Of a DNA stretch of 33,238 bases, positions 3,425-33,238 are shown piece after piece (positions within the stretch are counted from its first letter, which is position 1; each line of letters begins with the position of its first letter). Source of the DNA: a virus. Lineage: Duplodnaviria > Caudoviricetes. The DNA lies in IMG/VR virus record IMGVR_UViG_3300030376_006155, positions 1 through 33,238 of that record. One strand, written 5' to 3'. The notes below the pieces were generated by a model. The model was not told the DNA's origin. It worked only from the letters and a program-made list of their open reading frames with translations, and did not search any database. A program made the translations under genes and the position numbers.

Positions 3425-3877
3425 GTGTTATTCGGGTTCGTTTTCGTATTTTTCGGATGGTGGGGAGAACATTTGGATGAACATCCAATGGGAGGATACT
3501 CCTGTCCAATATATTGTTCAGTAGAGCATAACCATTTGAGGTTTACAGGCAAAGTAGAAAATGGCAAGTTAAAACTCTATGATAGGGAGGGGTTTAAACG
3601 CAGCTTATCCCAATATGAGGGTGAAGTATGGCTTGAAGTAAAAGAAGCCGAAAAAACCCATTCTCCTAAGCAAAACGCATACTATAGGGCTATTATAAGA
3701 GAGATTGCTAATGAACTTGGCTACACAGAAGACGAAATGCACAAAACCACTAAACAGTTATTTGAAATTGAATCTACTAAGGATTTATCTGTTGCTGATT
3801 TCTCTGATTACCTTGATAAGATAATAATTCATTTTGCACAATTAGGGTATCCTGTTCAAGACCCTCGTGGTCGTTAA
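3425..3877 (+). CDS. NinB/Orf-like recombination protein; true start may be TTG at 3536
   Basis: SPKQNAYYRAIIREIA...EMH...STKDLSVADFSDYLDKI matches NinB-like motifs. Confidence 0.65.
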   Translation: MLFGFVFVFFGWWGEHLDEHPMGGYSCPIYCSVEHNHLRFTGKVENGKLKLYDREGFKRSLSQYEGEVWLEVKEAEKTHSPKQNAYYRAIIREIANELGYTEDEMHKTTKQLFEIESTKDLSVADFSDYLDKIIIHFAQLGYPVQDPRGR

Positions 3878-4565
3878 AGTTTGGGCATTTGCTGACTTTA
3901 GGACTATATGTCCTGTTGTGTTCGTCAGGCACTATTATACCACAATCAATTTTTTCTTTAAGGTATTCAATATATTCATCTGTATAAACCACAACCCCAT
4001 TCTTTAATTTATTTGTAGTAAAATTTCTGGCAGTTATGTCATAAGGCAGATTTATATGTACACCTTTTAATTTGTTCGCCTTTTTATTCTTGGATTTAAA
4101 GTTCCTATATCGCCAAGCCCTATCTGTATCTGAAAATATGTGTAAGTTATAATATTGGTTATTGTAGTCTATTCTAATATCAACACCCTTATTGTCCAAA
4201 AACTTATCACGCATTACATTGGATTCTCCAAAAATCTTTTGGCACTTAAAGTAGGCTTGGTATTCAGTAAGTATTGAAACTTGGGTTCTGTATAATCGTG
4301 CCTCAACGCCATATAAAAAATCATTCCACTCTATATGAGAATAATGCTCCTTGTAGTGTTCCTGTAAATAGGTATGAACCTCTGATATATATTCTTTATA
4401 AAAATCTTCAAAGCCAAGCCAAAATTTCTTATCAAAGAAATAATACTCAAGCCATTGATTAGGATTTAACTCTCCCCTTAAATCTATTTCAACTGTCTTA
4501 TTTCTCTGAAACTTATAGTTTAATTTTAACTTTGATAAAAAATTTACGAATCTACTCTCTTCCAT
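3777..4565 (-). CDS. TaqI-like PD-(D/E)XK restriction endonuclease with no cognate methyltransferase
   Basis: GVEARLYRTQVSILTE...FG...LDNKGVDIRIDY resembles TaqI-family endonucleases as I recall them; not confirmed by search. Confidence 0.55.
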   Translation of the reverse strand: MEESRFVNFLSKLKLNYKFQRNKTVEIDLRGELNPNQWLEYYFFDKKFWLGFEDFYKEYISEVHTYLQEHYKEHYSHIEWNDFLYGVEARLYRTQVSILTEYQAYFKCQKIFGESNVMRDKFLDNKGVDIRIDYNNQYYNLHIFSDTDRAWRYRNFKSKNKKANKLKGVHINLPYDITARNFTTNKLKNGVVVYTDEYIEYLKEKIDCGIIVPDEHNRTYSPKVSKCPNFNDHEGLEQDTLIVQNELLSYQGNQRNQQQINP

Positions 4566-6969: not shown

Positions 6970-7371
6970 TTAAATAGCATTTCTAGTCGGTGTTAAATCT
7001 TTACCACAGCACACGCTTTGCTCTTGGTGTATTTGAAATTTATCATAGAAATCACTTTTCCCACAGGAAGAACAATAGCCAATTCTCGCATTGCCTGTTG
7101 AGTCTGATTTATAATCAGTAGCAAGAATTTTCTTTTGATTAACAACCTCAATCTCAAAGTCATCTTCCCAATTCTCGCCATTTATAAAAGTTGAGGGGTG
7201 TTTTATAAACTGTGGTTCTGTTCCCTGAACCTCAATCTGTTTAATGTAATTCTTAACCCCTTCAATACACTCTGATTGAGTTTTTTTAGGTAGCCTGTTG
7301 AAAGATACCCTTGCTCGTTTTTTCTCCTTTTTTCGTGGGTATATAGCCCAAAAATCATCAAATTTTCCCAT
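6970..7371 (-). CDS. DnaT-like / replisome-organiser C-terminal domain protein with a Cys tail
   Basis: FDDFWAIYPRK...KHPSTFING..WED motif; no N-terminal HTH. Start placed at MGKF. Confidence 0.7.
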   Translation of the reverse strand: MGKFDDFWAIYPRKKEKKRARVSFNRLPKKTQSECIEGVKNYIKQIEVQGTEPQFIKHPSTFINGENWEDDFEIEVVNQKKILATDYKSDSTGNARIGYCSSCGKSDFYDKFQIHQEQSVCCGKDLTPTRNAI

Positions 7372-7382
7372 AGTTACCCCTT

Positions 7383-7589
7383 CTACCATAATTTTGCCCT
7401 TTTCTTTTTTCTTAAATTAGTTTGGTAAACTCTAACACAAGGTAAGCACCAAGACTTATTCGCCCCATATTCATCAAGGCTGACATCTTTATTACATTTA
7501 AGACAAATCCTGCCACCTTTGGTTTGGCGTTCATTAAAGCGTTGGGAGATAACCTTAGAGTTACCTCCCTCTTGCGAACCTTTAGCCAT
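7383..7589 (-). CDS. Small zinc-finger protein
   Basis: CLKC...CLPC, basic C-terminus. Confidence 0.6.
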   Translation of the reverse strand: MAKGSQEGGNSKVISQRFNERQTKGGRICLKCNKDVSLDEYGANKSWCLPCVRVYQTNLRKKKRAKLW

Positions 7590-10619: not shown

Positions 10620-10819
10620 TGTTACTCTCCTTTTTTATCTTATTAATATTTTCAATTATCTCGCTTAAATCAATTAAAACACTCATCAATCATTTCAACT
10701 GATGTGATAACTTATTAACACTTGTTATTCAATTCCTAATCTTTTTTTCAACAAAAGTTAAAGTTTTTTAGTTTATAGAGGGGGGAGCAAGGGGGGAGTT
10801 TTAAATTGGTAGATATTTC

Positions 10820-10848
10820 TTGCATAGAATTTGGAGATGTTTTAGATT
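10820..10848 (+). promoter_or_regulatory. Sigma70-type promoter TTGCAT-N17-TAGATT
   Basis: Exact 17-nt spacer; predicted start at about 10853-10855, at the first stem of the structured RNA. Confidence 0.6.
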
Positions 10849-10852
10849 ACTC

Positions 10853-11108
10853 GCCCTGTGGATTGGTATACGACACTTGTAGCACAGGGATTTAAGACTC
10901 CATACTACAAGGGGTTCGCAACATATGGAGAAGGCATAGCCTAAGTAACCAATGCCTGTTGCTTGAGATTTACATCTGACAAATAGTTTACTGCTCTGAT
11001 TAGTGTAAAATGAACAGGGTATCCATTTTTTCGGCTCGGCTCGGAGGAATTAAGGATAAGGTCAAACCTTCGTTTAGGCGAGGGGTTGGCGAAGCCTTAT
11101 CCATTTTT
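10853..11108 (+). ncRNA. Unknown ~255-nt structured RNA
   Basis: No long ORF, at least five stems, a terminal hairpin with plus-strand G-U pairs followed by a T run. Confidence 0.6.
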
Positions 11109-11180
11109 CAACTCTCTCAAAGGAATTAAGTAAGAAGTTAAGAAGATTTTCTTTAGAAGTTTTTTTAAAATTAAGAAGTA

Positions 11181-11275
11181 AAATTATAAAAGCAAATTAT
11201 AAATCAAAATTATAAGCACGATTTATAAAATTATAACCCAAAATTATAATAGTAAATTATAATTCAGTATTATAT
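11181..11275. repeat. AAATTATAA repeats at 13-bp spacing (candidate origin/DUE)
   Basis: Exact copies at 11181, 11194, 11207, 11228, 11241 and 11254; degenerate copies at 11220 and 11267. Confidence 0.7.
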
Positions 11276-11593
11276 CAAAAATCGCCTCACTTTTTGCCTC
11301 AAAATCACCTGAAAAAATAGCCTAAAATATTTGGTTGTATTATGCAACCATCCCATCAAATTTATGATGTGTAAATTTTGTGACTTAAAGTATTACTTTA
11401 ACTCTCAAATCTGTAAAATTTACCTAAATTTAACTATTTTTTAAATGTAACACCAAAAAAAGCGTAATTCCAACAAAAAACTTTTTTCTCCTCGTGAAAT
11501 CATCTTTTTTCATTTTTTTACTTGCTTTGTATCATTAACAACCATTAATATTTGTTAGTTGAAACATTAACAATAATTAACAAGGGGTAAAAA

Positions 11594-11722
11594 ATGGAAT
11601 CAATAGACAATTATTTAATATTAATACAGATTATATGTTTAGGGGTTGCAGGTTTATTAATACCTATTATTGCAATACTTACTGTAATTGTTGAAAACCA
11701 AAAATTAAGGGGGAAAAAGTGA
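11594..11722 (+). CDS. Small single-TM protein (42 aa)
   Basis: Hand translation; AAGGGG RBS. Confidence 0.55.
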   Translation: MESIDNYLILIQIICLGVAGLLIPIIAILTVIVENQKLRGKK

Positions 11723-14600: not shown

Positions 14601-14742
14601 ATGTTATAATTGTGATTCAGAGATGATTTGGGGCAATGACTTTGACTTTGATGGCTGTGGGTATGAGGGTGAAGGTGTAGTTAGTTGCTTTACTTGCCCA
14701 AGCTGTGATACCTACGCAGAGTTTGTAGTGCCTATTAAGTAA
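14593..14742 (+). CDS. Small zinc-ribbon protein (49 aa)
   Basis: MVKCYNCDSEMIWGND...CPSC; AGGAG RBS. Confidence 0.65.
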   Translation: MVKCYNCDSEMIWGNDFDFDGCGYEGEGVVSCFTCPSCDTYAEFVVPIK

Positions 14743-14989
14743 GCCCCATTAGGTCTATCTCATCTTCTTCAAGGTATTCGCACATCTTCTTATAGACTTC
14801 ACTTGTTATTCTTATATCTTCTGATTCGCCTTCAAATTCTTCATATATAGGCTCTGAATTTAGCTGTATTTTGTCTAATTGCTCTTGCATTGTGGTGAGC
14901 TTGTGATTAAGGTCTATCTGTTGTGTGAATATTAAGGTCAGTACGTCTTTTATGGCTTGAATCTCCTTGAACAGCTTAAATATCTTCAT
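14735..14989 (-). CDS. Hypothetical protein
   Basis: AAGGAG RBS. Confidence 0.7.
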   Translation of the reverse strand: MKIFKLFKEIQAIKDVLTLIFTQQIDLNHKLTTMQEQLDKIQLNSEPIYEEFEGESEDIRITSEVYKKMCEYLEEDEIDLMGLT

Positions 14990-14998
14990 ACTGACTCC

Positions 14999-15445
14999 TT
15001 ATTTTTTTAATGCTTTATGTATTTCCTCTATAAGTGCTTCTGTGTATCTTTCCTGAGCTTTTTTGTCAAACTTGTTTACAAATCGCCTTTGAGTGTTTCT
15101 ACCCTCTCCATTATTGTGCATCCTACCATATTCAATCATATGGAGTCCTTCTTCATCTCCCCTGATGCTTTTGTATAAGACTTTCGTTTTATATAAAGGC
15201 TTTTTGCCATATTTAGCAAATTCAGCTTTAGACCTTGACATAGGGTTTGATTTAGTAAGAGGGGGTTTTACCTTGCCCTGACTTAACATTTTTTTTGCAG
15301 ACTTTGCCTCTTTTTTGTATAGGTCTGCCCTTGACTTTTTCTCAATGCTTTTAAATTTGCGTGCAAGTTTAGGGAAGCTAAAATTCGTTTCTATAAATAT
15401 CTTAGGCATCTTCACCCATATCTTCCATAGCCTGTAAATGCTCAT
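14999..15445 (-). CDS. Virion morphogenesis/neck protein-like (Mu gpG/HK97 gp10-like); start likely about 15409
   Basis: PLYKT..LYKSI...YGRMHNNG...RRF motif; downstream of the portal. Confidence 0.55.
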   Translation of the reverse strand: MSIYRLWKIWVKMPKIFIETNFSFPKLARKFKSIEKKSRADLYKKEAKSAKKMLSQGKVKPPLTKSNPMSRSKAEFAKYGKKPLYKTKVLYKSIRGDEEGLHMIEYGRMHNNGEGRNTQRRFVNKFDKKAQERYTEALIEEIHKALKK

Positions 15446-16703
15446 CTTCCATAGCTTCTCGGTTAGCTTTTATGATAGATTCGGCTTCAGATTTACTTAA
15501 ATCTTTATTGTATTTCATAAGCAGCCCAATTTCATCAACCATATGATGATTAAGCATATGCTCATCCATCAGTATTTGGTCTTGGACTGTTTTTGGATAC
15601 TCAGGCTCTTTAAAGTCTATTTTTAACTCTTCAGGAAGAGAAATATTGTTGTATGATGCAATCTTTTTCTCAATATCATATAAATCATACTCATACATAC
15701 GATAAAGGTCTAAATCGTCTTGATAATCTTCAAAGCGTTCTAAATCCTTAATTTTTAGTGCAATCCCTGATGGAGTTTCTCCACCATCTTGAGCAAATTG
15801 CACATATAAGTGATTATTTTGAGCAACCAAGTCTAGTTGGAACTTAACGGACTCAATTACTGCCTGAATATCACCTTCAGGAGCAGCAATACCAAAAGTA
15901 GACCCTTCGGGTAGGTCAAGTATTGTATCACTCCCTGCTCGTTCCAATTTCTTATCCCCATACATCCCTGTAATGAATGGTTGCCCAAACATTTGGAATC
16001 TTAACCCTAATTGTAGCTCTGTCATCGTTATATTTACCTGTTCATTGCAACTAACAATGTCATTTGCTCCTTCAACGAAGAAAGAATCAATTTGGTCTTC
16101 TCTATGGGTGAATAAAAATGGTATTACGCCATATCCATGCAGATATTCGTTCATAATATTGCCATCTTCATCAAAATGGATGTATCTTTCTTTATCCCAA
16201 TAGGCATAGTGTAACTTTTCAGCAGCAGAAACATCACTTACATTCATCATAATTGGATATGTTATGGCTTCAGGCACAAAGGGGTTCTCGCCAAGATGCA
16301 CATCAAAGTAATAAACAGGTCTATAATCAAAGCAGGGCTGTGGGAGGTCATCACGATATATAACTTGTGTTGCAACAGACCCTACAAGACGAGTCATTCT
16401 TTCAATATGCTTCATTTTAGCATCTTTTTTGCGAGTCAAGGAGGAATACGAATCACTCACATTGCGAGAAGCCCCTACTGTGTAAATTCTTGACATCTTA
16501 TTGATAAATCTGCGTGTAAAGTTAGCATTGTACAGAGGAATCTCTCTAAAAGCATCAGCAGAGAAGTAATCATCAATATATTTTTCAGTTTCTGTGCCTG
16601 TATAGTAATCAAGGAGCTTGCGAATCTCATCTCTTCGTGCTTGTGCTATATTCAGCTTATATTCTTTGACCGACTCTTGTATTATGTCTATCGGGTTCAT
16701 CAT
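15402..16703 (-). CDS. Portal protein (SPP1 gp6-like)
   Basis: 433 aa after TerL; LDYYTG, HGYGVIPF, SGIALK and IDF..P motifs. Confidence 0.85.
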   Translation of the reverse strand: MMNPIDIIQESVKEYKLNIAQARRDEIRKLLDYYTGTETEKYIDDYFSADAFREIPLYNANFTRRFINKMSRIYTVGASRNVSDSYSSLTRKKDAKMKHIERMTRLVGSVATQVIYRDDLPQPCFDYRPVYYFDVHLGENPFVPEAITYPIMMNVSDVSAAEKLHYAYWDKERYIHFDEDGNIMNEYLHGYGVIPFLFTHREDQIDSFFVEGANDIVSCNEQVNITMTELQLGLRFQMFGQPFITGMYGDKKLERAGSDTILDLPEGSTFGIAAPEGDIQAVIESVKFQLDLVAQNNHLYVQFAQDGGETPSGIALKIKDLERFEDYQDDLDLYRMYEYDLYDIEKKIASYNNISLPEELKIDFKEPEYPKTVQDQILMDEHMLNHHMVDEIGLLMKYNKDLSKSEAESIIKANREAMEDEHLQAMEDMGEDA

Positions 16704-18022
16704 CGTGAAATTACTCCTAATTCTCGTTGTCTAATTGGAAATCTGTTTAAAAAGAAATACCTGAAAGCATCCATACTGTGGTCGTGCCTTCCATCTTTAA
16801 CAGGGTCAGGCTTCAAGTCTTTGCCTTCTCCTGACTCAGGGTATCTATAATTCTCTAAATCCTCTGCTAAACCCATACACTTCTTGTCTAAATGTACAAA
16901 TCTCTGTCCTTGTGCATTTTCTATAAACCCTCTAACGTGGCTTACTCCTGATGCGATACTTCTTGACACTTTATCTCTAATACTTCTTACGTGTATGCCT
17001 TTACGCCTAAATATCTCAATATCTCCTAAACCTGATTGTCCTTGTGCCTGCATACCCGCAGGGTCACCATAATACTCTCTTACGTGATAATGTTTAGCTT
17101 GAATCATCTCCACAAACTCGTCAGTCTTGATATTTGCCTTATGTACAATCTCATCTATTACATTTATATGCGTTAGTCCACCTATCATATGGGTTTGAAA
17201 CCATATTGCAGCAGGCATCCTAAATCCAAAGTCTATTGAGCAAAAAGTTGGATAATTCGGATTATAGGGAAATTCACCCATATCCAAACTCCTATCAAAC
17301 GGATAAACTCTACCTTCAAACGAAGTAAACATCGCCCCATATTCCTGCTCATAGAGCTCTTTTGACATATTTCGCTTACGTTCAATGAGGAATTGGTCTT
17401 TCTTTCCATCAGGGAATACTACATTGTTATCCCAAGTAGGGGCTTGATGAGATTCCCATAAATCATCTTCTTTGCCAAGCAAAAACAAGTCATATATCCA
17501 ATTAAACCCTTCAGGGGTTGTTATGAAGATAGCTTTGCCTTTTCTATCTGACAAGGTTGGCGAAAGATACATATCCCATATCTTCCTTTTCATTTTAGCC
17601 ACCTCATCCATGATTAGTAAATCTAACCCTTCCCCAACAAGAGAATCAGGATTATCGGCAGATTTAGCCTCTACAGTAGTTCCCCACTTGAATTTTATAA
17701 ATCTTTCTTTTTCAGAGGCTCTTTCAATGTCATTAGCACGACCAATTACCATCTTTTGCCATACTTCTCTGAACATTAAGTCTGCTTTGTCGTAGGATAA
17801 CCCAACTAACCATATCTTTTTGTTCGGCTGAGAGGCATAATACGTTGCCTCCATTGCAGACGAGGTTGTTTTGCCAAATCTCCTTCCACAGACCATAACG
17901 AAGAATCTTGCTGTGTCTTTATCAGGGAAATGTAACTTCCTTTGACCTGAATGAGGGTTATACCCCATAAAGTCAAACCATTGCTGCTTATATTGTGTTT
18001 GATTATCCATTAATACTTGCAT
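16700..18022 (-). CDS. terL: Terminase large subunit
   Basis: Walker A GRRFGKT, Walker B LLIMDE, TTPEG, nuclease DFG...DPA...DHSMDA. Confidence 0.95.
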   Translation of the reverse strand: MQVLMDNQTQYKQQWFDFMGYNPHSGQRKLHFPDKDTARFFVMVCGRRFGKTTSSAMEATYYASQPNKKIWLVGLSYDKADLMFREVWQKMVIGRANDIERASEKERFIKFKWGTTVEAKSADNPDSLVGEGLDLLIMDEVAKMKRKIWDMYLSPTLSDRKGKAIFITTPEGFNWIYDLFLLGKEDDLWESHQAPTWDNNVVFPDGKKDQFLIERKRNMSKELYEQEYGAMFTSFEGRVYPFDRSLDMGEFPYNPNYPTFCSIDFGFRMPAAIWFQTHMIGGLTHINVIDEIVHKANIKTDEFVEMIQAKHYHVREYYGDPAGMQAQGQSGLGDIEIFRRKGIHVRSIRDKVSRSIASGVSHVRGFIENAQGQRFVHLDKKCMGLAEDLENYRYPESGEGKDLKPDPVKDGRHDHSMDAFRYFFLNRFPIRQRELGVISR

Positions 18023-22017: not shown

Positions 22018-22323
22018 ATGTTTTCAGTAGCATCTTTAACAGCATTAGCAACAAAGAAGGTAGCAGTTTACGCAGGTATGGGAGTAGCAGGATGTGCTAC
22101 AGCCTTTATATTAAAAAAGATTCCTAACGCCACCATAAAAGCCAAGTTTGGTTCTTGGATGTATAATCTTGGGGTGTTATGTACTTTGGGCTTAGGCAAG
22201 TGGAAGTGGACTAAGAAGGTATGGAATAAAACCCTTGAACCTTATTGCATTGATGCTATTGACAATATAGTTGTTACAGGCATATCAAAGTTTGTAGAGG
22301 GACTGCGTTCAGATAATGTCTAA
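22018..22323 (+). CDS. Membrane protein, possibly lysis-related
   Basis: Hydrophobic segments; AGGAG RBS. Confidence 0.55.
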   Translation: MFSVASLTALATKKVAVYAGMGVAGCATAFILKKIPNATIKAKFGSWMYNLGVLCTLGLGKWKWTKKVWNKTLEPYCIDAIDNIVVTGISKFVEGLRSDNV

Positions 22324-22885
22324 AGCCTTAAAAATAGACAAAGCAGTTGATGGCAATCTAAAACCTGTAAAGGATTCAGATGGTACTATGACTTCTTTAG
22401 AAATATCTACTGAGAAACTTAGAGTAAAGAATTTAGAAGTAATAGGTGATATAAATGATGGATATACAAGACAGATTCATGTAATTAATACAGGATTCTA
22501 TGGCAATGCTTCTAAAATGTACATTCCTTTAAATGGTTATATAGTAGAAAAAACAGCAACATCATCTAGTAATGAATATGTGGCTATGCCTTCTCCATAT
22601 GCAGGAAGAGTAATTAAAGTAATGGCAAGATCAGAAATAGCTTGTGGCAGTACAGTAGTTGGATTTCATAAATCAGCAGAAGGGGTAGAAGTGCCAAATA
22701 CAAGTGCTATTTCAGATGTTACTGTAAATATGGCAACAGATGATACTGCTTATACATTTGATTTTACAAGTTTAGATAATGCTTTTGCTTTAGGTGAAAT
22801 TTTGGCATTTTCTTTTGACCCTACAAGTAGCAGCTATGACACTAATGTGGTAGTAGTTTTAGAATATGAGATAGGAAAAATATGA
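22316..22885 (+). CDS. Putative virion structural/fibre protein
   Basis: Beta-rich S/T composition; late operon. Confidence 0.5.
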   Translation: MSKALKIDKAVDGNLKPVKDSDGTMTSLEISTEKLRVKNLEVIGDINDGYTRQIHVINTGFYGNASKMYIPLNGYIVEKTATSSSNEYVAMPSPYAGRVIKVMARSEIACGSTVVGFHKSAEGVEVPNTSAISDVTVNMATDDTAYTFDFTSLDNAFALGEILAFSFDPTSSSYDTNVVVVLEYEIGKI

Positions 22886-30615: not shown

Positions 30616-33238
30616 GCTTTATAGATGATATACAGGGAAAGAATACACAGCTATATCCAATAGTAGAGATAGATGGTCAATTTTACTCTACTAACAATGT
30701 GACTATTGGTGATAATTATTGTAAGCCAATCCTTATGAACATTCCTTCTATCAAAGAATCAATAGACATTGAATCAAGGAAGTTTAAGATTTCCAATGTA
30801 TCCCTTGAGTTTAATAACTTTCCTTTTGATGGGGTTAGATTCTCTGACCAATTAACTGAATCATCCTTAATTAATACTGAAACCACTATATATTTTAAAA
30901 GCCAATCCACTAATGCTGTTGAAGATATGCACGAGGTATATAAGGGTATTATTAGACGTATATCCCACGATGATGAGAAGGTCAAGGTGGAGCTTGAAGA
31001 TTTAACAGAGCAAAAAGCACATAAGGATTTACCAAGCCAAGAATTTTTGGGGGATGATTCTGTTCTTGATAAATATAAAAACAAGCCCATCCCAATGGTT
31101 TATGGTCACGTTGAAGCAAGCCCATTATTACTAACAAATACATTAAACCCTGAAGATTATATTGAAGATATTTTAGGCGATACTATAGAGAAATATGTAG
31201 ATATAATTTGTGACTATAGAGCAATAGGTGGTTTTGTAACAGTAAACCCTAAATATCAACATAATTTAGAAGTAGGCTCTTTATATATATATGATAACGC
31301 TTCGCAAACTTATCTTAATGCTTGCCTTGAGTCTAAGACAAATTCTCAGCCTGAAACAACCCAATATATTGAAGACCCTGATAATGCAAAAATAACCTTA
31401 TTTTTAAAAACAAATGGGGGCGAAGGACAAAACTTTCCTGCACAAGGAATGATAGAATGCGAGGATATTAAAAATACAAATTCTATACAAGGAATTTGGA
31501 CTGAAGGAGCAGGACAATATCATCATAAAACAAGGGATGGGGTTAATGCACTAACAAATGATTCATCTTATAGCCAATGGCAAGACATTCTTTCTGCTTC
31601 AGATGAGAATGCCCCTAATTTTCATTTTATGGGTGCATATCATTCAGCAGGCACATCTGTAACTTGGAATCCAAGTGAATATGATAATTTAAGTGATTAT
31701 GGGAGAAAGCTATTTATACTTATAAGGGCAACTTTTAAGAACCATAATATCCTCACATTTGCTATAGACCACCCTTCTTTATCTTTTGATGGGACTTACC
31801 AAAGTGCAGAGTTAAGAATAGGCACTAAGGAAAAAGTATTTACATCAGGGGTTGATGAAGATGGTCTTCCTGTTACACATGAATCAGGAGGCGATAGTTT
31901 AACTTTAACTACAATAGGTACAGGACAAACTTACTACTTAGATACAATTAATTCAAGTATATATAATAATGGCTTAAACTATGAAGGAAACGTCGGAGAG
32001 ATTGGAATATCTTGGGTAATGCCTTCTGGGACATTAGGAACTAATTATGGGTTTATTGAATCTAAAATAGAATACTTAAACGCAATAGAAAGGTTTGTCC
32101 TTAAAGGATTTGCAGGATTTGATTTCTATGCTGATGTAAAAGGTAGAACAAACACATTTGATGACCATCCTGATGAAGGAATCCAAGCTACAGGAGGGTA
32201 TATAGATTACCAAACAATTGATTTAGGGATTGGAGGAACAATTGTAACGAATGTATGGATACCCCCTGTTCATCCATTTATTGAGAATCCTATTGACATT
32301 ATTTATGATTTAGTTAGAAGTGAACTTGGGTATGATGCTATTGATGAAGCTGAATATGCAGAAGCAAAAGCAGAACACGTTGGATGGAAGTTTGGATTTA
32401 CTGTAAATAAAAAAATCAACTCCAAGAAACTTATTGAAGATATAGCTAAATCTACTAAGTGTTTCCCTAAATTTAAGAATGATGGCACTTTTGGCTTTAA
32501 TACAATTAAAGATAGTTATGACGTAGCAAATGATTATGAAGATGCTACTCAAATAAAAGAATCAGAAGTTATATCATATTCATTTAAGAAAACTAAGCCT
32601 GAACAAATCTATAAGAAGGTAACTGTATCTTACAATAAGGATTATGCACAAGATTCATATTTAAAAACAAGTGAGATTGACTTAGGTGCTGATTCATATT
32701 ATGGTATTGAAGATTCAGAAGATGCTCATTTAGAATTTGAATCAGACTATATAAGGCATAATGCTGATGATGGAGCAACTGCTGATAAATTAGCTTCATT
32801 CCTGTCACAGCAATACAGGAGAGACCATTTAATATTTAATCTTAAATTGCCTTTACAGTATATTGACTTAGAGATTGGGGATTTGGTTAAATTTAGAGAA
32901 CTTTTTGGGGGTGTAAAGGCTTATGGGATTGATTATAGAATTTTAAATCCTAAAACAACAGGGAATCTATTTCCTTTATTTATAGTCACTTCTACTACAA
33001 AGAATTTAGATTCAGTAGAAATTGAATGTATGCAACTGCATCATTTATCAGGAGGCGAATCAAATCAATGGAAAGAAGGAATAGAAGGTATGTTTCCTCC
33101 TGATTTTGGGTATGGAGAAACTGATGTTAATGGTACATTCTACTTTCCTGATACTGAGCCTCTTGTTATTCCCGAAGACCTTGCAACTGAAATTGTTATT
33201 ACTCCACCTAATATAATAATAGATGCACCTATTACAAC
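30612..33238 (+). CDS. Large tail-tip/hub (gpJ/Tal-like) protein, N-terminal part with allele B; runs off the window end
   Basis: ATGA overlap with the TMP. Hand translation MSFIDDIQGKNTQLYP..., PIPMVYG, DVKGR, ENPIDIIYDL. About 1219 aa when joined to allele A. Confidence 0.85.
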   Translation, partial: MSFIDDIQGKNTQLYPIVEIDGQFYSTNNVTIGDNYCKPILMNIPSIKESIDIESRKFKISNVSLEFNNFPFDGVRFSDQLTESSLINTETTIYFKSQSTNAVEDMHEVYKGIIRRISHDDEKVKVELEDLTEQKAHKDLPSQEFLGDDSVLDKYKNKPIPMVYGHVEASPLLLTNTLNPEDYIEDILGDTIEKYVDIICDYRAIGGFVTVNPKYQHNLEVGSLYIYDNASQTYLNACLESKTNSQPETTQYIEDPDNAKITLFLKTNGGEGQNFPAQGMIECEDIKNTNSIQGIWTEGAGQYHHKTRDGVNALTNDSSYSQWQDILSASDENAPNFHFMGAYHSAGTSVTWNPSEYDNLSDYGRKLFILIRATFKNHNILTFAIDHPSLSFDGTYQSAELRIGTKEKVFTSGVDEDGLPVTHESGGDSLTLTTIGTGQTYYLDTINSSIYNNGLNYEGNVGEIGISWVMPSGTLGTNYGFIESKIEYLNAIERFVLKGFAGFDFYADVKGRTNTFDDHPDEGIQATGGYIDYQTIDLGIGGTIVTNVWIPPVHPFIENPIDIIYDLVRSELGYDAIDEAEYAEAKAEHVGWKFGFTVNKKINSKKLIEDIAKSTKCFPKFKNDGTFGFNTIKDSYDVANDYEDATQIKESEVISYSFKKTKPEQIYKKVTVSYNKDYAQDSYLKTSEIDLGADSYYGIEDSEDAHLEFESDYIRHNADDGATADKLASFLSQQYRRDHLIFNLKLPLQYIDLEIGDLVKFRELFGGVKAYGIDYRILNPKTTGNLFPLFIVTSTTKNLDSVEIECMQLHHLSGGESNQWKEGIEGMFPPDFGYGETDVNGTFYFPDTEPLVIPEDLATEIVITPPNIIIDAPIT
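32593..33238 (+). repeat. Terminal overlap, copy B
   Basis: See 1-727; 81 bp shorter and in frame. Confidence 0.95.

Follow-up and report, generated by a model that had tools for sequence, protein, structure and literature searches.

The PAGEV RNA motif (Rfam RF03037) is found in plasmids of gamma-proteobacteria, where it lies within the predicted origin of replication, and the accessible portions of the original report assign it no known mechanism (Weinberg 2017, PMC5737381). The MRB origins of Vibrio carry no ORFs and produce two transcripts, RNA I and RNA II (Le Roux 2011, PMC3035462). According to that study, RNA II is a detected transcript whose 3' end lies close to the border of the conserved block. 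A function as a primer was not demonstrated there, and the mechanism was left uncharacterised in 2011. The legend of its Fig. S2 names pSIO1 and 'pHPD10' among the pB1067-family plasmids.

Two other systems are relevant. ColE1 RNA II is a promoter-driven, folded RNA whose G-rich stretch forms a lasting hybrid with template DNA, the rG stretch pairing with a dC stretch (PMC4412123, in the excerpts available). The T4 origins oriF and oriG combine a promoter with a downstream region in which the transcript forms an R-loop, which resembles the phage origin proposed below. In contrast to that proposal, the T4 origins use a DNA unwinding element, and their description, in the portions of the sources at hand, includes no RNA that has a conserved fold and a matching box. 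We found no paper linking PAGEV, MRB origins and phages in the literature on PAGEV, MRB, ARRPOF and phage ColE1-like primers, a survey that covered few subscription papers; Pan, Leung and Gu 2010 or the Weinberg supplement may already note the overlap of PAGEV with MRB or the pseudoknots.

The DNA analysed here, called the window, is a 33.2-kb virus record with an estimated completeness of 98% and with genes for terminase, capsid, tape-measure and lysozyme proteins. An initial annotation had described it as a phage without a primase, in agreement with which none of the 52 ORFs scanned matches a primase, helicase, polymerase or integrase. No tRNA or tmRNA was found in the window. Its ends (1-727 and 32593-33238) are redundant but diverged, the identical blocks reaching 85 nt, which suggests that two strains or variants were joined in assembly. 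The portal-like and large terminase genes (14735-18022) have the opposite orientation to those for the small terminase and the capsid, an inversion also present in relatives. Other products include one with a dockerin type I domain at its C terminus (477-1679), possibly a clue to the host, an HNH-like protein, and a protein with a TaqI-like restriction endonuclease domain (3777-4565), for which no methylase match was found among the scanned ORFs.

The RNA element lies in a gap (10669-11718) flanked by a leftward early operon on one side and rightward genes on the other. No ORF of at least 50 aa is present in this gap. The features to which we refer are as follows.

6970-7389, minus strand: 139-aa protein, candidate helicase loader, similar to phage replication initiators in their C-terminal half only
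10820-10848, plus strand: predicted sigma70-type promoter (-35 TTGCAT, 17 nt, -10 TAGATT), pattern kept in the copies, predicted start ~10853
10854-10889, plus strand: P1 hairpin, the 3' end of whose loop (10876-10882) is one strand of the kissing helix PK1
10898-10930, plus strand: P2 hairpin, whose loop holds the PK1 partner (10905-10911) and a PK2 strand (10918-10922)
10932-10962, plus strand: P3 (10932-10935 with 10954-10957), the P4 5' strand (10946-10952) and the PK2 partner (10958-10962)
10965-11021, plus strand: inner hairpin, whose loop (10969-10974) pairs with 11004-11009 (PK3), and the P4 3' strand (11015-11021)
11029-11054, plus strand: repeat copy 1, putative guide, with a left arm, GGCTC (11038-11042) and the exact box (11045-11054)
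11054-11102, plus strand: last hairpin, with the G-tract (11080-11089)
11106-11130, plus strand: repeat copy 2, putative DNA target, with the exact box (11121-11130) and, near its start, an RNA-DNA junction predicted from MRB distances
11167-11274, no strand assigned: AT-rich 13-mer array, downstream wherever found but variably adjacent

The structured RNA is real and richly covarying. All 17 motifs listed in the initial annotation are present where it had placed them. Folding of the single sequence does not exceed shuffled controls (z of -1.43 for the plus strand and -2.01 for the minus strand), and support for the fold therefore comes from homologues. In anchored tables over 20 distinct close copies, the stems CCCTGTG/CACAGGG (P1) and CTCCATA/TATGGAG (P2) pair in 18/18 copies with seven versions and in 20/20 copies with nine versions, respectively. 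The two loops, whose complementarity had been put forward as a possible pseudoknot, form PK1 with 7/7 Watson-Crick pairs in 19/19 copies and four versions. Across the homologues, P1, P2 and this loop-loop helix covary strongly. P3 is paired in 20/20 copies (three versions). PK2, a 5-bp helix between the 3' part of loop 2 and the five bases after P3, also covaries, being fully paired in 19/20 copies with four versions, and P4 retains 4-6 of its 7 pairs and includes a double change.

Other stems of the initial annotation needed revision. Only a 4-bp core of AGGCAT/ATGCCT is conserved, and the alternative CCTGTT/AACAGG is not conserved at all. TTTACA/TGTAAA covaries, as read by eye and in the close copies only, but it is corrected here to a pairing between a hairpin loop and downstream nucleotides (PK3). 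Most groups lack the T-run that follows the last hairpin in the window; since the run is not conserved, this hairpin is not a general terminator.

The fold was measured separately on 14 diverse 5' domains in an unfitted alignment made with MAFFT. In this alignment 84% of cells pair, with double changes at 15/20 pairs, while slid controls give 44-56% and 0/500 shuffles reach the structure score, the registers having been chosen on the alignment itself and the shuffles ignoring relatedness. RNAalifold missed P1 and P2 on another alignment because the helices were misaligned there, and the anchored tables and the alignment of 5' domains were used instead.

The collection comprises 27 distinct phage copies. 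The 20 close copies, two of which are cut at the 5' end (the copy in L023 being identical to that of the window), were gathered through neighbouring proteins, a conserved pattern and terminase relatives; the seven distant copies were added with models and a structural descriptor that gave 0 matches in 18 shuffled genomes. All copies reside on phage-like or short metagenomic contigs, and the carriers are a group of marine phages. Among terminase relatives at least 90% complete, 8/10 have the RNA. One search of relatives for the RNA took in 49 of the 80 terminase loci plus one further locus (L006), and neither a 91-kb phage (G050) nor a truncated relative (G027) gave a match. Cultured phages and plasmids, searched by BLAST with the RNA, likewise contained no match. 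Matches to the short pattern only were dropped as chance (10/10 in GTDB genomes and 12/28 in metagenomes). In one relative (L004), the flanks are nearly identical to those of the window and the RNA is much changed, for which reason we regard the RNA as behaving like an exchangeable module. In another relative, and in this one only, a small ORF with a ribosome-binding site directly follows repeat copy 2 (L003:8588-8727, minus strand).

A further feature lies at the 3' end. It had been noticed earlier that TATCCATTTTT is doubled, and the repeat stands, but it is only the edge of a longer covarying repeat that continues to 11130, beyond the end of the region first annotated. In all copies, a purine box of 8-18 nt within the RNA recurs exactly 68-89 nt downstream, past the hairpin with the G-tract, which thus separates the two boxes. 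The close copies have exact boxes of 8-12 nt, 75-83 nt apart, in 20/20 cases, and their six versions each match only themselves (8/8 positions versus 2-7/8). The distant copies have the box in 7/7 cases (five computed, with self matches of 8-13 versus cross matches of 4-8, and two by eye). About 12 box versions exist, and when wide windows are compared, matches between genomes reach 11 nt. Both boxes change together in every phage, as in the single-base changes of L008 against L018 and those found in L043.

The box of copy 1 follows a conserved GGCTC. The element contains no complement of the box, and so a common RNA partner fails to account for it. Beside the box, over 13 distinct pairs, a G of copy 1 stands against an A of copy 2 in 36 cases and an A against a G in 0, counts that derive from about four columns. 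We infer that such one-way differences would be tolerated if copy 1, as RNA, paired with the template strand of copy 2.

How the element relates to described RNAs can be judged first from Rfam. The window has 0 matches at gathering threshold, including none to ColE1 RNA I or RNA II. The original statement that no known family could be recognised is nevertheless only partly right, given a weak match to PAGEV, which scores 12.1 bits against a gathering threshold of 61.1 (E of 0.018 per genome) and is in register, with model position 1 exactly at P1. Because 12 versus 61 bits fails the cut-off, the kinship rests on architecture. The PAGEV model matches 0/15 relatives, a sequence model of the phage RNA finds nothing significant in PAGEV plasmids, and a pattern built jointly for PAGEV and the phage RNA has no match in viral contigs. 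A structure model built from the phage copies only places PAGEV 5' domains in register at 5/8 matches (86 kb) with E values of 0.55-1.9, and chance matches in phage DNA score above the PAGEV ones.

The architectural likeness is extensive. Both RNAs have P1 and P2 with similar loop lengths and a kissing register that joins the 3' part of loop 1 to the 5' part of loop 2. Both have AAGGG in loop 2 and a J2/3 GGU whose pairing partner is a GCY further on, with the PK2 strand immediately after this GCY, and in both an enclosing helix is succeeded by a box, a G-tract and a second box. The J2/3 GGUA and the P1 and P2 loop motifs of PAGEV are present in the window. PAGEV differs in having a long insert or third stem after J2/3, where the close phage copies have a short loop of ~9 nt, and the phage RNA differs in its additional PK3. 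PAGEV occurs in plasmids, whereas the phage RNA occurs in tailed-phage contigs.

The Rfam model of PAGEV shows no pseudoknots and stops before the boxes. Of 16 plasmid loci analysed, 15 have the loop-2 anchor and one (L162) lacks it. PK1 and the G-tract GTAGGGG are each present in 15/15, P3 together with PK2 in 13/15 (from a best-of search, with compensatory versions), and a repeat of 7-11 nt at a distance of 86-97 nt in 14/15. The plasmid repeats are partly explained by hairpins, and Vibrio shows only two versions. True PAGEV copies are found in Pseudomonas plasmids, including pPMA4326D, which has no annotated Rep. The PAGEV model scores 122 bits in pSIO1 and 104 bits in pPHDP10 (the 'pHPD10' of the Fig. 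S2 legend), and gives no match in pVCG1.2 or pPS41.

RNA I of pSIO1 has its promoter on the minus strand, which puts PAGEV on the RNA II strand. Three estimates, measured from the inverted repeat, from where RNA I starts and from where conservation stops, transfer the mapped end of RNA II to ~661-665 of pSIO1, and copy 2 begins at 666, a placement made by distance only. PAGEV is seen inside MRB RNA II, with the pseudoknots and the downstream repeated box, at L150:348-680, L152:5283-5600 and L153-L161. MRB RNA II therefore resembles the phage RNA as a transcript from a Rep-less origin that holds PAGEV, ends by distance at the second box and has a G-tract just before its end, the phage end being a predicted one. 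The two differ in that MRB RNA II is ~465 nt long and is overlapped in its 5' region by the antisense RNA I, whereas the phage RNA begins at P1 and spans ~255-275 nt. A consensus scan finds no antisense RNA I promoter or terminator over the phage RNA, and P1 directly follows the -10 box. Taken together, the phage RNA probably works like PAGEV and MRB RNA II and is probably related to them, without being a member of the family.

Gene content supplies an additional clue. Among the RNA carriers, 5/11 have a short initiator homologue of 133-148 aa and 6/11 have no initiator match. The two complete relatives without the RNA encode initiators of 217-246 aa, whose additional N-terminal part matches phrog_2514. 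This part may bind origin DNA, as in lambda O/DnaD-type initiators. Because the two phages without the RNA are close kin, the link between initiator length and presence of the RNA amounts to about one event. For the short initiator, Pfam gives nothing and the Atlas gives unnamed viral clusters only. The full-length initiators of the relatives without the RNA (G045:20468-21208 and G047:1342-1995) have a short amino-acid repeat within them, a possible sign of iterons inside the gene.

We consider it likely that the RNA is a replication primer of the MRB/ColE1 type that acts through an R-loop and has lost antisense control, and that the locus is the origin of the phage. This reading is favoured because of the likeness to PAGEV and MRB RNA II, the covarying box with its G-tract, and the truncated initiator. 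Host RNA polymerase would transcribe from ~10853, and the folded core would present copy 1, which would capture the template strand of copy 2 to form an R-loop. Where a G of copy 1 faces an A of copy 2, rG-dT pairs would be allowed, in this direction only. The G-tract would stabilise the RNA-DNA hybrid, and the RNA 3' end at ~11105-11121, produced by termination or by RNase H, would prime a host polymerase. The truncated initiator would load the host helicase and would no longer need to recognise DNA. The lack of an evident antisense RNA I module is in keeping with a replicon whose copy number is not controlled. A resemblance to ColE1 RNA II had been suggested at the outset, and a primer of that kind is the best explanation, on grounds other than those first given. 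Unlike the fixed G/C run of ColE1, the pairing box of the phage RNA varies.

Covariation of guide and target and the G-to-A polarity would suit any RNA-DNA pairing. The RNA might accordingly guide some other DNA transaction at copy 2, such as nicking, recombination, the start of packaging or genome-end processing, either unaided or together with a phage protein, for instance the HNH-like or TaqI-like nuclease encoded in the window. We judge this unlikely, since small plasmids with no gene in common apart from the origin have this layout too, and since the length of the initiator goes with the presence of the RNA.

Joint changes in direct repeats are a typical mark of protein-binding sites. The boxes could on this basis be DNA sites, like iterons or operators, that coevolve with a phage protein, while the RNA serves separately as a trans-acting sRNA, as a scaffold or in transcriptional activation of a nearby origin; in one layout a divergent HTH gene does lie beside the RNA. 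Protein sites would not be expected to differ in one direction only between G and A, to be spaced 68-89 nt apart without helical phasing, to have copy 1 fixed behind GGCTC inside an RNA, or to recur as repeats in Rep-less plasmids, and we regard this explanation as improbable.

The element appears to act as a transcript of the plus strand. The promoter TTGCAT-N17-TAGATT, previously noted to point into the stems, belongs to a pattern (TTG-N17/18-TAnAnT) found upstream of P1 in 18/18 copies checked, with divergent spacers, although a consensus promoter scanner does not list it. This pattern and the frequent G-U pairs in the helices indicate the plus strand, and the sequences thus support an ncRNA that is read from a promoter on the plus strand and contains a kissing pseudoknot. 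GC skew goes with the direction of the genes and is uninformative; third-position skew does not switch at the RNA, which counts against an origin there. Weinberg 2017 (PMC5737381, in the portions available) raised for plasmid motifs the idea that such folds act as single-stranded DNA, here a lagging-strand or single-strand origin. No transcript was seen in one metatranscriptome run, which has no coverage of 10744-11159 and shows neither absence nor expression. The conserved promoter and the G-U pairs speak against single-stranded DNA, as does MRB RNA II, a detected transcript across the PAGEV region as placed by distance (PMC3035462, in part), and we hold this reading to be very improbable.

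It is equally hard to credit a multimerising structural RNA (pRNA- or ARRPOF-like, with intermolecular pairing of the perfectly complementary loops) or an antisense regulator of ORF 22316-22885, to which 10922-10941 offers a 20-nt exact complement at 22582-22601, because both leave the boxes and G-tract unexplained and because the 20-nt match, the genome's longest non-terminal repeat, occurs in the window only (other carriers reach <=12-15 nt, barring an end redundancy) and was rejected as a family feature.

Proximity to AT-rich 13-mers had been the original argument for a primer, and this argument proves weak. The 13-mers adjoin the RNA in 12/24 loci, lie 1.7-2.6 kb away in 6/24 and are not found in 2/24 (one of them a complete genome), a further 4/24 being too short to tell. 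Because adjacency holds in only 12/24 loci, the fixed partner of the RNA is the box rather than the array. The AAATTATAA 13-mer array, at 11167-11274 in the window, is upstream of the GP88/small-terminase side in the window and relatives whatever the position of the RNA, and bent DNA, a packaging site or a loader site are candidate roles for it.

If the primer reading is true, a clade of tailed phages has a plasmid-type RNA primer origin instead of recognition of iterons by an initiator. More tentatively, and with somewhat greater doubt than trust, we suggest a family of RNA-guided origins common to plasmids and tailed phages, in which a pseudoknotted scaffold, itself conserved, would hold out a variable guide of 8-20 nt, and this guide would find and open its own downstream match and thereby replace the DNA-recognition domain of the initiator. 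Should guide and target be changeable together, the specificity of an origin would be set by base pairing. The comparison also ties together two loose ends, namely the function of PAGEV and the mechanism of MRB RNA II, and the location of PAGEV inside RNA II, with covarying pseudoknots and box, opens the way to a direct test by compensatory mutation in small plasmids.
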